46,375 nucleotides of DNA, from sequence record NC_001901.1, one strand, 5' to 3'. A program made the position numbers and the translations under genes. Shown here in pieces: positions 4,285 to 40,494 of this stretch; position 1 is the first letter of the stretch; every line of letters begins with the position of its first letter. This stretch comes from Escherichia phage N15. A model generated the notes under the pieces. It was not told where the DNA came from. It ran no database searches and saw only the letters and a program-made list of their open reading frames with translations.

Positions 4285-5608
4285 TCTTCCGCATATTGCC
4301 AGTATGGCCTTTAATGAGCCACTGATGCTTGAACCCGCCTACGCGCGGGTTTTCTTTTGCGCGCTGGCTGGCCAGCTGGGTATCACCCGGCTGACAGATA
4401 CTGTCGCTGGCATCACGCTTGATGCAGGACAAATTGCCGAACCGCTGGCGTTATTTGGTGATGATGATGACATGGAACCCCGTCCATCACGCAGTTATCA
4501 AGTGGCAAATGGTGTCGCAGTTTTACCCGTTTCCGGCACGCTGGTCAGTAAAACCCGCTCGCTGCAGCCTTATTCCGGCATGACGGGTTACAACGGGATC
4601 ATCGCTCGCCTGCAGCAGGCAATCAGTGACCCCGGCGTAGATGGCATCCTGCTGGATATGGATACGCCAGGCGGAATGGTGTCCGGGGCATTTGACTGCG
4701 CCGACATTATTGCCCGTATGCGCGATATCAAACCCATCTGGGCGCTGGCCAATGACATGAACTGCAGCGCAGGGCAGCTTATTGCCAGTTCAGCATCGCG
4801 GCGGCTGGTCACACAAACGGCCAGAACCGGATCCATCGGGGTCATGATGGCGCACAGCAACTATGGTGCTGCGCTCAAAACTAACGGCGTTGAGGTCTCG
4901 CTGATTTACAGCGGCGATCACAAGGTCGACGGCAACCCTTACGAAAAACTACCAGAAGATGTGCGTGCTGATTTCCAGACGCGTATCGATGCCACTCGTC
5001 AGATGTTCGCCGAAAAGGTTTCCGCTTATACCGGTATGTCCGTTCAGGACGTACTGGACACCGAAGCGGCAGTATTCTCCGGCCAGGAGTCAGTGGACAA
5101 CGGTTTGGCGGATGAACTTGTTAACAATACCGATGCGCTCGGCGTGATGCGCGAAGCACTCGACAGACGCAAAAAAATAACCATTGGAGGAACTATGCCA
5201 TCACCTTCTGCATCAGCTGTGGCCACTAAGCCAGCTGACCAGGCAGCAACTCAGACAACTGCCTCAGCTGAACAGGTCACTACCGTTGACACGACCATTG
5301 CTTCCGTAGAGGCCCCTGTAGATGTCAGTGCGCAGGTCACTGCAGCAGTAGCTGCAGAGAATAGCCGCATCATGGGCATCCTGAACTGTGAAGAGGCGAA
5401 AGGGCGTGAGTCACAGGCGCGTGCACTGGCCGAAACGCCGGGTATGACGGTAGAGAGTGCACAGCGCATTCTGGCGGCTGCACCGCAAAGTGCCCAAGCG
5501 CGTACCGACACGGCGCTGGATCGTCTGATGGAAACAGCACCAGGCGCACTTTCAGCAGGCAGCGCATCTTCTGATGCCGCTGACGATTTGTTAAACACCC
5601 CAGTTTAA
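4265..5608 (+). CDS. Prohead protease / scaffold (lambda gpC-like, S49 ClpP-type)
   Basis: Position after portal. S49-type block GILLDMDTPGGMVSGAFD...NCSAGQLIASSAS. Ala/Gln-rich C-terminal scaffold part. Confidence 0.9.
   Translation: MAHELRNLPHIASMAFNEPLMLEPAYARVFFCALAGQLGITRLTDTVAGITLDAGQIAEPLALFGDDDDMEPRPSRSYQVANGVAVLPVSGTLVSKTRSLQPYSGMTGYNGIIARLQQAISDPGVDGILLDMDTPGGMVSGAFDCADIIARMRDIKPIWALANDMNCSAGQLIASSASRRLVTQTARTGSIGVMMAHSNYGAALKTNGVEVSLIYSGDHKVDGNPYEKLPEDVRADFQTRIDATRQMFAEKVSAYTGMSVQDVLDTEAAVFSGQESVDNGLADELVNNTDALGVMREALDRRKKITIGGTMPSPSASAVATKPADQAATQTTASAEQVTTVDTTIASVEAPVDVSAQVTAAVAAENSRIMGILNCEEAKGRESQARALAETPGMTVESAQRILAAAPQSAQARTDTALDRLMETAPGALSAGSASSDAADDLLNTPV
5195..5608 (+). 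CDS. Nested in-frame scaffolding protein (lambda Nu3-like)
   Basis: In-frame ATG at 5195 preceded by GGAGG (5187..5191). Same arrangement as lambda C/Nu3. Confidence 0.6.
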   Translation: MPSPSASAVATKPADQAATQTTASAEQVTTVDTTIASVEAPVDVSAQVTAAVAAENSRIMGILNCEEAKGRESQARALAETPGMTVESAQRILAAAPQSAQARTDTALDRLMETAPGALSAGSASSDAADDLLNTPV

Positions 5609-21657: not shown

Positions 21658-21677
21658 TACTGTATAAAAAAACAGTT
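21658..21677 (+). promoter_or_regulatory. LexA (SOS) box overlapping the promoter of the UmuD'-like gene
   Basis: TACTGTATAAAAAAACAGTT has exact CTG-N10-CAG spacing with an AT-rich core. TTGCAT lies 17 bp upstream of TACTGT. Confidence 0.8.
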
Positions 21678-21691
21678 ATATGGTGAGAGTT

Positions 21692-22078
21692 ATGGGATTC
21701 CCGAGCCCGGCACAGGACTACGTTGAAGAACGAATATCACTGGACAAGCTCCTCTTGACTAGGCCATCGGCTACCTACTTCATGCGCGCCGGTGCCACTC
21801 ACTATCAAGAAGGTATCCTGTACGGTGCATTGCTGGTTGTTGATGCGTCACGTACACCATGTGACGGCTCGTTACTTGTTTGCCGGATGGATGGCGAACT
21901 TAGGATAAAGCGGTACCGTAAGTCACCAACCCCTCATCTTGAGGATTTGCAAACAGGAAGAAGAGAAGAGATACCGAAATATGATGATGAAACGAGTCCG
22001 GATGCAATATTTGGCGTGATCACGTACAGCATTAACGACATGAGGTCAGGTGAATTTGATGATTGTCCAGTGTTGTAA
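21692..22078 (+). CDS. UmuD'-like protein (starts at the position of the UmuD cleavage product)
   Basis: MGFPSPAQDYVEERISLDKLLLTRPSATYF aligns to E. coli UmuD from Gly25 ([29 protein letters not shown]). Confidence 0.85.
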   Translation: MGFPSPAQDYVEERISLDKLLLTRPSATYFMRAGATHYQEGILYGALLVVDASRTPCDGSLLVCRMDGELRIKRYRKSPTPHLEDLQTGRREEIPKYDDETSPDAIFGVITYSINDMRSGEFDDCPVL

Positions 22079-34108: not shown

Positions 34109-34717
34109 TCATCTACCCTCAACCATGAACGATTTGATCGTACCGACTACTTGGTGCACAAATTGAAGATCACTTTTATCATGGATAACCCGTTGAGAGT
34201 TAGCACTATCAAGGTAGTAATGCTGCTCGTCATAACGGGCTAATCGTTGAATTGTGATCTCGCCGTTATTATCACAAACCAGTACATCCTCACCCGGTAC
34301 AAGCGTAAGTGAAGAATCGACCAGGATAACGTCTCCCGGCTGGTAGTTTCGCTGAATCTGGTTCCCGACCGTCAGTGCGTAAACGGTGTTCCGTTGACTC
34401 ACGAACGGCAGGAATCGCTCTGTGTTGGCAGGTTCTCCAGGCTGCCAGTCTCTATCCGGTCCGGTCTCTGTCGTACCAATAACAGGAACGCGGTCTGGAT
34501 CAGATTCAGTGCCATACAGTATCCATTGCACGGGCTTACGCAGGCATTTTGCCAGCGATAGCCCGATCTCCAGCGACGGCATCACGTCGCCACGTTCTAA
34601 GTTTTGGACGCCCGGAAGAGAGATTCCTACAGCTTCTGCCACTTGCTTCAGCGTCAGTTTCAGCTCTAAACGGCGTGCTTTCAGTCGTTCGCCTCGTGTT
34701 TTCATACCCTTAATCAT
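34109..34717 (-). CDS. cB: Prophage repressor CB (HTH_XRE N-domain plus degenerate S24/LexA-like C-domain)
   Basis: KARRLELKLTLKQVAEAVGISLPGVQNLERG HTH. C-domain YALTVGNQIQRNYQPGDVILVD is CI/LexA-like. Divergent from cro. Confidence 0.9.
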   Translation of the reverse strand: MIKGMKTRGERLKARRLELKLTLKQVAEAVGISLPGVQNLERGDVMPSLEIGLSLAKCLRKPVQWILYGTESDPDRVPVIGTTETGPDRDWQPGEPANTERFLPFVSQRNTVYALTVGNQIQRNYQPGDVILVDSSLTLVPGEDVLVCDNNGEITIQRLARYDEQHYYLDSANSQRVIHDKSDLQFVHQVVGTIKSFMVEGR

Positions 34718-38945: not shown

Positions 38946-39272
38946 ATGGCACTGACACCCGCAGAACGGCAAAGGATCCGCCGAGAGAAGCTAAAAAAGC
39001 AAGGAACCACCAGGCGTGATTGGGTTCTGGAGCCGGATGAGCTGCGTATGCTCGGCGAAATTTGCATACAGCGTCGTCCGGGGCGAGAGCCGTATTCTGA
39101 AAATGAGGTTATTGGCCTCCTGATCCGCAAGAACTACAAAGAGCTGCAAAAGAAACTTTCCGGTTCGTGTTCGCGGTGTGGGAAGCAACTTCCGGTAGCC
39201 GATTGCCTGTTTGATGGCGAAGGTACATGCCAGCTGACCACTCTCAGATTGAAGCTGGCCATTAAAGCGTGA
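38946..39272 (+). CDS. Hypothetical basic protein with C-terminal CxxC
   Basis: AGGAG lies 8 nt upstream of the ATG. LTPAERQRIRREKLKKQG N-terminus. Stop codon is embedded in the 15-bp palindrome motif. Confidence 0.6.
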   Translation: MALTPAERQRIRREKLKKQGTTRRDWVLEPDELRMLGEICIQRRPGREPYSENEVIGLLIRKNYKELQKKLSGSCSRCGKQLPVADCLFDGEGTCQLTTLRLKLAIKA

Positions 39273-39282
39273 CTGGTCACGG
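39268..39282. promoter_or_regulatory. Second copy of the 15-bp motif CGTGACTGGTCACGG
   Basis: Exact match to the minus-strand reading of 28548..28562. Lies 10 nt upstream of the ATG at 39293. Confidence 0.6.
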
Positions 39283-39292
39283 AGGGTTAAAA

Positions 39293-39514
39293 ATGGATAA
39301 AAAAGCATTGTTATTCGAACGCCTTCGGCAGAGAAGCGAAAGCAGTCTGGCCAGCGGAGGTGATGGGTTTATTTTTGCCTCAATGCTGGCGTTCGACATC
39401 GGTCTGAACACAAGAACGATCCGGGGGATGCTGGACTCTGCTGTGAAAAATGGAACCCTGGAAAAAAAAGAACGTGGAGCTGGCCGTGCACATAAGTACC
39501 GGACAATTCAGTAG
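39293..39514 (+). CDS. Small winged-helix-like protein, hypothetical regulator
   Basis: GGAGGG RBS. 73 aa ending KNGTLEKKERGAGRAHKYRTIQ. Confidence 0.55.
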   Translation: MDKKALLFERLRQRSESSLASGGDGFIFASMLAFDIGLNTRTIRGMLDSAVKNGTLEKKERGAGRAHKYRTIQ

Positions 39515-39563
39515 TTTAATCAAAAAAATTGCCAAAAAATGGTTGTATCGTTTGCGGATTTCC

Positions 39564-39579
39564 CTGTGTTTATATACAG
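39564..39579 (+). promoter_or_regulatory. LexA (SOS) box overlapping the promoter of the small antirepressor gene
   Basis: CTGTGTTTATATACAG is an exact CTGT-N8-ACAG. TTGCGG-17-TACAGT promoter-like hexamers overlap it. Confidence 0.8.
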
Positions 39580-39603
39580 TATTAAATAACCTTGGTAGAC
39601 AAA

Positions 39604-39831
39604 ATGGTATACGATTCAATGACAGATGCAGCCGTGTCATGTTGTGAAAAACTTGATTCCCAGCTAAGCGATCTCGATGCTGTCCTGGATATGGTGAGCA
39701 CCGTTATGGCCTCACCAGAGGCCAGCCTTCATATGAATGAGGCGGCACGTCTTCTGCGCATGTCTCGTAATATGGTCCACAGATGCAAGGATGTTGTCGC
39801 GGATGAGCTCATTCGGCAGGCTGGCGAATAA
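39604..39831 (+). CDS. antC: Small LexA-controlled antirepressor
   Basis: 75-aa ORF directly downstream of the LexA box. N15 induction through a LexA-regulated antirepressor acting on CB is established. Assigning it to this ORF rests on the box position. Confidence 0.65.
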   Translation: MVYDSMTDAAVSCCEKLDSQLSDLDAVLDMVSTVMASPEASLHMNEAARLLRMSRNMVHRCKDVVADELIRQAGE

Positions 39832-39868
39832 AAAAGGGAAAGGCGAGATACCCTCGCCTTTCCCTTGT
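39832..39868. terminator. Bidirectional terminator between antC and the convergent antitoxin gene
   Basis: GGGAAAGGCGAG-atacc-CTCGCCTTTCCC, a 12-bp stem with an A-run on the left and T-rich sequence on the right. Confidence 0.8.
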
Positions 39869-39895
39869 TACTTCACCTGCAGATACTCGTCTTAA

Positions 39896-40183
39896 TCAAT
39901 ACACAGCATGAATATCAATGCTTGCACCGCAAGCCTTAGCGTATCGAGATAGTGTCTTCATGCTGGCACCTAGTGGGTTGCTTTCCAGGCGGCTAATTGC
40001 TGATGGCTGCAACCCCATGCGTTCAGCCAGCGCAGACTTCGTCAGGCCAGCTTTCTCCCTCATCTCGTAGAGCATTTCAACCATCGCCAACTCCTTGTCG
40101 GCATCTTCGTAACCCCGGATAGCCTCCGGGGTATTGAGCAGTTCTTCTTTCACCTGATTAAATGGGATGCCTTTTACTTTCAT
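39896..40183 (-). CDS. Antitoxin, HTH_XRE family (HigA-like)
   Basis: REKAGLTKSALAERMGLQPSAISRLES HTH. Start overlaps the toxin stop. Confidence 0.8.
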   Translation of the reverse strand: MKVKGIPFNQVKEELLNTPEAIRGYEDADKELAMVEMLYEMREKAGLTKSALAERMGLQPSAISRLESNPLGASMKTLSRYAKACGASIDIHAVY

Positions 40184-40494
40184 TAGCTCATCTCCTTCAG
40201 ACGCGTTCTGGCGATATCAATTGCGTGGGTAGGCGTCTTTTGCGTCTTCTTAACAAATGCATGTAGCAGATAAATTTCGTTACCTACCGCGTAAGCGTAC
40301 AGCGTTCTCGCTATGTTTTTATCCCCTACCCTTAGTTCGAAAAGGCCACCACCGATAACGCGGCTATGAGGCATTTTCAGCTTGTTCCCTTCACTTTCCA
40401 GTCTCTCGATCAGCCGGGTCATGCGACCGCGTAGCTCATCAGGTAATTCTTTAAGCTCATCCAGCGCTGCCGGGTGGGTTATCACGTTAAACAT
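40183..40494 (-). CDS. Toxin of the Gp49 / HigB-RelE superfamily
   Basis: MFNVITHPAALDELKELPDELRGRM...GGGLFELRVGD...RTLYAY...IYLLHAFVKKTQKTP fits the Gp49-like family. ATG at 40494 after AGGAGGT. Confidence 0.8.
   Translation of the reverse strand: MFNVITHPAALDELKELPDELRGRMTRLIERLESEGNKLKMPHSRVIGGGLFELRVGDKNIARTLYAYAVGNEIYLLHAFVKKTQKTPTHAIDIARTRLKEMS

Follow-up and report, generated by a model that had tools for sequence, protein, structure and literature searches.

A small gene behind a LexA operator in phage N15 is very probably the antirepressor gene antC

Introduction

How a prophage can answer DNA damage when its repressor appears unable to cleave itself, and which gene passes on the signal, is the question raised by a short region of the Escherichia phage N15 genome. 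The window analysed here is the whole stretch of 46,375 nucleotides in sequence record NC_001901.1, and the region in question holds a candidate LexA operator in front of an open reading frame (ORF) for a protein of 75 amino acids. A preliminary description of this DNA had proposed that induction works through LexA derepression of a small antirepressor rather than through repressor autocleavage, and had mapped the antirepressor to this ORF.

An antirepressor of this kind has been described for N15. According to papers citing Mardanov and Ravin 2007 (J Bacteriol 189:6333, PMC1951935), the LexA-repressed protein AntC binds the prophage repressor CB and is needed for, or initiates, SOS induction of N15, and the citing literature groups AntC with Tum of phage 186 as antirepressors under LexA control. 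Where later papers refer to this work, the passages concerned give neither coordinates nor a size for antC. The LexA-controlled antirepressor circuit of N15 has been known since 2007 and no new biology is added to it here. The practical value of the analysis lies in pinning antC to coordinates that are unannotated, or labelled “hypothetical protein”, in the public N15 record and its relatives. Since a known regulatory circuit was recovered from raw sequence, the work is of use as a positive control as well. What remains of worth beyond this is the annotation and one lineage with an apparently rewired input.

A LexA operator overlapping a weak promoter

Direct reading of positions 39300..40100 places the core CTGTGTTTATATACAG, of the form CTGT-N8-ACAG, at 39564..39579 within the 20-mer CCCTGTGTTTATATACAGTA at 39562..39581 (no strand assigned). 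The 20-bp gammaproteobacterial LexA consensus, TACTGTATATATATACAGTA, contains the 16-bp palindrome CTGT-N8-ACAG, whose centre is AT-rich; the N15 site matches the consensus at 16 of 20 positions and its right half is perfect. To score the site we used a palindromised weight matrix derived from 21 E. coli SOS boxes, and all scores are approximate; the training boxes themselves span 12–27 bits. On this scale the site reaches 21.8 bits, which is inside the training range and makes it the second-best site in the 46375-bp genome.

The matrix picks out two outliers in N15, one of 24.7 bits at 21658..21677 and the present one, while the third-best site has only 10.1 bits. When the genome was simulated 300 times with a first-order Markov model, the best site averaged 11.1 bits and the maximum was 18.5, so that none of the 300 simulations reached 21.8 bits. 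Because there are only two high-scoring sites, with the next at 10.1 bits, and the simulations peak at 18.5, the box is not a product of chance. A simple count of CTGT-N8-ACAG gives three matches in the genome against 0.49 expected, the third of which (10823) has a G+C-rich centre and a low score.

The putative promoter reads TTGCGG at 39552..39557 (plus strand, −35, three of six positions matching TTGACA) and TACAGT at 39575..39580 (plus strand, −10, four of six matching TATAAT). The two hexamers are 17 nt apart, and the LexA box extends over this spacer and the −10 hexamer, which falls within the right half of the box. Judged by sequence, what overlies these two elements is a LexA operator of genuine grade, and secondary citations of Mardanov and Ravin 2007 report LexA control of the antC promoter in N15. 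The two hexamers together match 7 of 12 positions of the sigma-70 consensus, and a promoter scanner with a threshold of 9/12 reported nothing at this place. By consensus the predicted promoter is weak, and its assignment rests on conservation in relatives. The preliminary description had called the box consensus-grade, which is borne out by its score, by the simulations and by its retention in relatives. It had placed the promoter hexamers correctly, including their overlap with the box, but had overstated the quality of the promoter, and its distance of 25 nt from the box to the ORF needs correcting to 24 nt, counted from the end of the box to the ATG at 39604.

The open reading frame and its predicted product

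The candidate antC ORF runs from 39604 to 39831 on the plus strand, with its stop codon at 39829..39831, and would encode 75 amino acids, or 70 if translation starts at the ATG at 39619. In an alignment of upstream regions the ATG at 39619 is invariant across relatives, while the ATG at 39604 is found only in an N15-like subset, its place being taken by CGG or CTG in the types of Klebsiella and phiKO2. Since the downstream ATG is invariant and the upstream one is not, the product in N15 may have 70 rather than 75 residues, with 39619 possibly the start codon. The length of 75 residues given in the preliminary description is that of the complete frame, and it is only the start that may have to be moved.

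Comparison of the ORF with divergent homologues over core residues 6–61 gave pN values of 0.17–0.25 against pS values of 0.63–0.82, corresponding to a dN/dS of approximately 0.1. This pattern of substitution marks the ORF as a real gene, subject to purifying selection. The family to which it belongs is narrow: it forms ten clusters at 90% identity, and a collection of 1.84 billion proteins contains nine representatives at 50% identity. AlphaFold2, run with a nine-row alignment, predicts a two-helix hairpin with helices at residues 2–34 and 38–74 and a mean pLDDT of 90, the two predicted helices being joined by an invariant SPEASL turn.

The best PHROG match of the protein is phrog_6301, a family of unknown function (1.4e-26), followed by phrog_10889, which carries the label “anti-repressor” (1.2e-8); remote homologues of the protein match the same two families. 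The origin of the phrog_10889 label was pursued by tblastn of the remote homologues against phage records, which led to no annotated record. Searches of Pfam and NCBIfam with the protein gave nothing above noise, and a PDB sequence search with the family profile returned designed helical proteins only. Foldseek comparison of the AlphaFold2 model with the PDB was uninformative, as the matches were all generic helical hairpins, from Esx proteins and designed bundles, and had E > 0.4.

The presumed target is a non-cleavable repressor

The presumed target of the antirepressor is the prophage repressor CB, encoded by cB at 34109..34717 on the minus strand, 4.9 kb from the antC candidate. Its 202 residues are exactly those of N15 Gp38 (AAC19070.1), and Pfam searches find HTH_3 in its N-terminal part and a Peptidase_S24-like domain in its C-terminal part. 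Repressors of the S24 type that cleave themselves have an Ala-Gly or Cys-Gly cleavage site together with a Ser/Lys dyad, and alignment of CB with LexA, lambda CI and UmuD found neither. At the cleavage site (A84-G85 in LexA) CB has T-G in place of A-G or C-G, and glutamine occupies the positions of both Ser119 and Lys156 of LexA, so the dyad is absent. Remote homologues of CB have phenylalanine or leucine at the position of the catalytic lysine.

This agrees with the literature. Hammerl et al. 2016 (PMC4997575) likewise support a non-cleavable N15 repressor, and in the in-gel assay of Silpe et al. 2023 the N15 repressor was unproteolysed after SOS induction with ciprofloxacin. The earlier view that the main repressor appears non-cleavable is supported by the residues at the cleavage site and the dyad as well as by published work.

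Conservation of the operator, the promoter and the gene

We compared the locus with 36 related loci, comprising phiKO2, two other phage records, a Pseudocitrobacter genome and 32 IMG/VR contigs, which between them hold 23 distinct upstream sequences. The box, the −35 hexamer and the ORF occur together in all 36. The boxes score 18.6–26.2 bits and lie at a fixed distance upstream of the homologue, and in nearly all of the loci this is the only strong box across 6 kb. When 21 distinct upstream sequences were aligned, TTTGC at the −35 hexamer and TATACAGTA, the right half-site including the −10 hexamer, were invariant; the left half-site was CTGT in 20 of the 21 and ATGT in phiKO2, while central and flanking positions varied. 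Invariant half-site and hexamers set among variable flanks are what one would expect where an operator and the promoter beneath it are both functional, as far as an alignment can tell.

A 202-aa homologue of CB with 85–99% identity is found 3.5–6 kb upstream on the opposite strand in every one of the 31 loci that have enough flanking sequence. The identities of the two proteins fall in parallel: AntC homologues of 100% identity go with CB homologues of 97–99%, those of 88–90% with 96–99%, those of 63–71% with 92–97% and those of 59–64% with 85–90%. This trend is compatible with a co-evolving pair, and shared descent alone would yield the same; the co-occurrence of the two genes may be mere synteny inside one phage lineage.

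Four more remote lineages were located on contigs, with a protein identity of about 30–35% as judged by eye rather than computed. Three of the four share the gene order repA (~1320 aa), CB-like gene (203–204 aa), cro and Q, followed further on by methylase and lysis genes; the other, L072, is a 3.2-kb contig that covers the downstream part of the N15-like gene order only. Boxes of 21–24 bits with the same TTGC(A/G)-17-TACAGT geometry occur in L069, L072 and L073/L074, where the −35 hexamer is TTGCAT or TTGCGC. Members of the family came only from N15-like phage-plasmids or from contigs with their gene order, with a CB-type repressor wherever the flank suffices. The cassette of operator, promoter and gene is thus kept across all detectable N15-like phage-plasmids, in Enterobacter, Klebsiella, Escherichia and Pseudocitrobacter, with the exception of the lineage described below.

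The closest DNA match in the phage BLAST collection is Enterobacter phage MStein-2023a, at 88%. A megablast search of 5,426 complete E. coli genomes with positions 39500..39900 gave no match, and the same query against PLSDB gave six matches of 90–98% identity, all to Enterobacter plasmids of 38–47 kb. Because the E. coli genomes lack a match and the PLSDB matches are all from Enterobacter, that genus seems to be the main present-day host of close N15 relatives.

A second LexA-like box of 18–21 bits was seen in the Klebsiella-type relatives (L021–L036, at 4751–4801; about 4751 in L028). This box coincides with the first codons of an N6/N4 methylase gene (MKNTVKINSAQL), approximately 1.8 kb downstream from the antC homologue. 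Since it falls inside methylase codons and probably arises from the coding sequence itself, we set it aside as an operator; N15 has no LexA box at the equivalent place.

The flanks of the gene

A G+C-rich hairpin separates antC from the convergent gp48–gp49 (ata–tad) operon. The hairpin occupies 39834..39866 (no strand assigned; located by folding and by a terminator scan), and is predicted to form 14 pairs with −27.4 kcal/mol and a z score of −7.4. It had been described as a strong bidirectional terminator. The hairpin is indeed strong, but a T-tract is present on the minus strand only: the terminator scanner flags it on that strand alone, with the tail TTTTATT, whereas the plus-strand tail, GTTACTTC, has four T in eight positions and fails the T-run criterion. 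Termination of the antC transcript at this hairpin may therefore be less efficient than had been assumed.

The genes gp48 and gp49 (39896..40494, minus strand, convergent with antC) form the Tad-Ata toxin-antitoxin pair, a Gp49/RelE-like toxin with an Xre antitoxin. The 95-aa HTH protein encoded at 39896..40183 on the minus strand is exactly N15 Gp48 (AAC19087.1). SOS-induced transcription of antC could run into this operon on its antisense strand. The slot 3′ of the antC homologue is a hot-spot for cargo genes: it holds Tad-Ata in N15 and phiKO2 and HicAB in L069 (8267..9089), and it is empty in L070, L072 and L073 (7219..7667 in L073).

On the upstream side, between gene 47 and antC, the plus strand carries nothing that the scanner flagged as terminator-like. 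As a speculation, read-through from the early right operon could add further AntC once the switch has started and so act as positive feedback. The gene upstream (39269..39514), a homologue of phiKO2 gp46 belonging to phrog_13995, stands in the ORF list with 81 aa and a GTG start. The exact sequence of the 81-aa version is absent from the protein collection and the PHROG match begins at residue 9, which is why the true start is probably the later ATG that gives a 73-aa product beginning MDKKALL.

Which gene is antC?

The SOS-box layout in itself leaves two candidates, and the stronger box belongs to the other one. The site of 24.7 bits at 21658..21677, TACTGTATAAAAAAACAGTT, lies 14 nt upstream of a gene at 21692..22078 for a 128-aa protein, a homologue of UmuD′ of the pre-processed HumD type. 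Its product begins at the residue equivalent to Gly25 of UmuD and has threonine in place of UmuD Ser60. If this were the published AntC, it might heterodimerise with the S24-like domain of CB, and the 75-aa ORF would have some other role in the SOS response. Besides having the strongest box in the genome, the HumD protein and the C-terminal domain of CB both match Peptidase_S24/HumD models, and phiKO2 has a HumD gene too. Against this, the protein is a HumD equivalog (NCBIfam NF051876, 204 bits against a cutoff of 120) and 70% identical to HumD of P1/P7, and the gene is shared by phages (P1-like, lambdoid and P22-like) with repressors unrelated to CB, which is the pattern of general SOS-mutagenesis cargo. 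The 75-aa family, unlike HumD, is confined to N15-like phage-plasmids or their synteny beside a CB-type repressor, and it matches an anti-repressor PHROG. On the equivalog score and the spread among phages with unrelated repressors we reject the HumD gene as antC and regard that assignment as very improbable.

It could also be supposed that the 75-aa protein is SOS-induced but is no antirepressor, and serves as a DinI-like modulator of RecA or LexA, as a division inhibitor or as a regulator of tad-ata. The protein is without a Pfam, NCBIfam or PDB match, its generic helical-hairpin fold resembles only Esx and designed proteins, and a convergent toxin-antitoxin module stands next to it in N15, phiKO2 and L069, sharing the terminator hairpin in N15. 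In relatives that keep the ORF the toxin-antitoxin slot is nevertheless variable or empty (HicAB in L069, nothing in L070, L072 and L073); the constant partner of the ORF is CB. N15 is moreover stated to need a LexA-controlled antirepressor, for which there would otherwise be no candidate besides HumD. We give this alternative little credence. Least probable of all is a spurious ORF preceded by a palindrome that arose by chance in AT-rich intergenic DNA. An empty promoter scan and the lack of the ORF in the original N15 annotation would fit such a view, but the simulations, the retention of the box in 23 distinct upstream sequences whose flanks vary, the dN/dS of the ORF and the confidence of its AlphaFold2 model speak against it, and on this sequence evidence it may be taken as effectively refuted.

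We conclude by elimination, with a probability of about 0.9, that the 75-aa ORF is the published antC of N15. The reasons are that the genome has only two credible LexA boxes, of which the other drives a HumD equivalog, that the 75-aa family is restricted to N15-like elements with a CB-type repressor, and that the family matches an anti-repressor PHROG. Presumably antC lies in the right arm of N15 near genes 47 and 48, an assumption that was given no weight as evidence. The mapping of LexA derepression of a small antirepressor to this ORF, as originally put forward, is thus supported by the box, the coding ORF, the non-cleavable CB and elimination.

In the protein collection the 75-aa sequence appears only in Enterobacter entries named “uncharacterised” or “hypothetical”. 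Since no N15 accession is among them, the original N15 record evidently leaves the ORF unannotated. Related annotated records that call a gene at this place name it “hypothetical protein”, “Gp47” or “putative gp47”. In phiKO2 the syntenic gene is Gp47 and lacks the note “similar to N15 gene” that is present on its neighbours. Apparently the experimentally named antC was never propagated into annotation.

A possible sequence of events

The 75-aa ORF directly follows a LexA operator and is not part of the immunity region, the arrangement by which antirepressor systems are recognised. Taken together, the antC locus very probably consists of a weak sigma-70 promoter under a LexA operator, a helical-hairpin protein of 70–75 amino acids and a hairpin shared with the convergent operon. 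In the lysogen, host LexA would sit on the box and keep antC silent, while the repressor CB, cI-like but with its S24 domain dead, would shut the lytic promoters. DNA damage would activate RecA and lead to self-cleavage of LexA, upon which the antC promoter would open and AntC would accumulate and bind CB, a binding taken from the literature. CB would then be inactivated or titrated without proteolysis, so that the cro-Q early operon, repA and the lytic genes would be derepressed.

A lineage without a LexA box

In one remote lineage the input of this switch appears to be different. The contig L070 (7431..8213, identical in L071) carries a remote AntC homologue, P0058, in repA-cB-cro-Q synteny with a non-cleavable repressor of the CB type. 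There is no LexA box near this AntC homologue in L070/L071. Instead it is preceded by a divergent gene for a 106-aa protein with an HTH-like stretch, which has no match in Pfam or PHROG, and the control region of 250 bp contains two inverted repeats starting with TTTAGTGC (TTTAGTGC...GCAC), one of which is the perfect palindrome TTTAGTGC-N7-GCACTAAA.

Tentatively, antirepressors of the AntC helical-hairpin type could be a portable output module with an exchangeable sensory input, and the switch of L070/L071 could be independent of SOS, although we regard this as doubtful. If true, it would connect the antC system of N15 with the TF-smORF modules described by Silpe et al. 2023.

Comparison with known systems

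The nearest system is the N15 AntC of Mardanov and Ravin 2007, in the same genome and with the same logic. Nothing about the present locus is demonstrably different from it, and the match in coordinates is one that we infer: like published AntC, this ORF lies behind a LexA box, and it is the only gene in N15 other than HumD to do so. Tum of coliphage 186 is likewise an antirepressor under LexA control; it binds the cognate repressor and blocks operator binding. It differs in having 146 aa with a DinI-like second half and in acting on a repressor of a different type, and no sequence relationship between Tum and the 75-aa protein emerged from the Pfam, PHROG or PDB searches.

The GfoA/GftA antirepressors of the Salmonella Gifsy phages resemble the N15 protein in being small, encoded elsewhere than in the immunity region and directly controlled by LexA, and in binding non-cleavable repressors. 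They are encoded in a dinI-antirepressor-irsA operon and their targets are repressors of about 150 aa that resemble the N-terminal domain of cI, whereas in N15 antC is monocistronic and its target CB retains a dead S24 domain; the two systems are set apart here by description. The TF-smORF modules of telomere phage-plasmids share with N15 a small ORF whose product inactivates a cI-type repressor without proteolysis. They differ in their input, which is an adjacent phage-encoded transcription factor independent of SOS, while that of N15 is host LexA. With its LexA box lost and a divergent 106-aa gene gained, the L070/L071 lineage looks like a shift towards the TF-smORF architecture.
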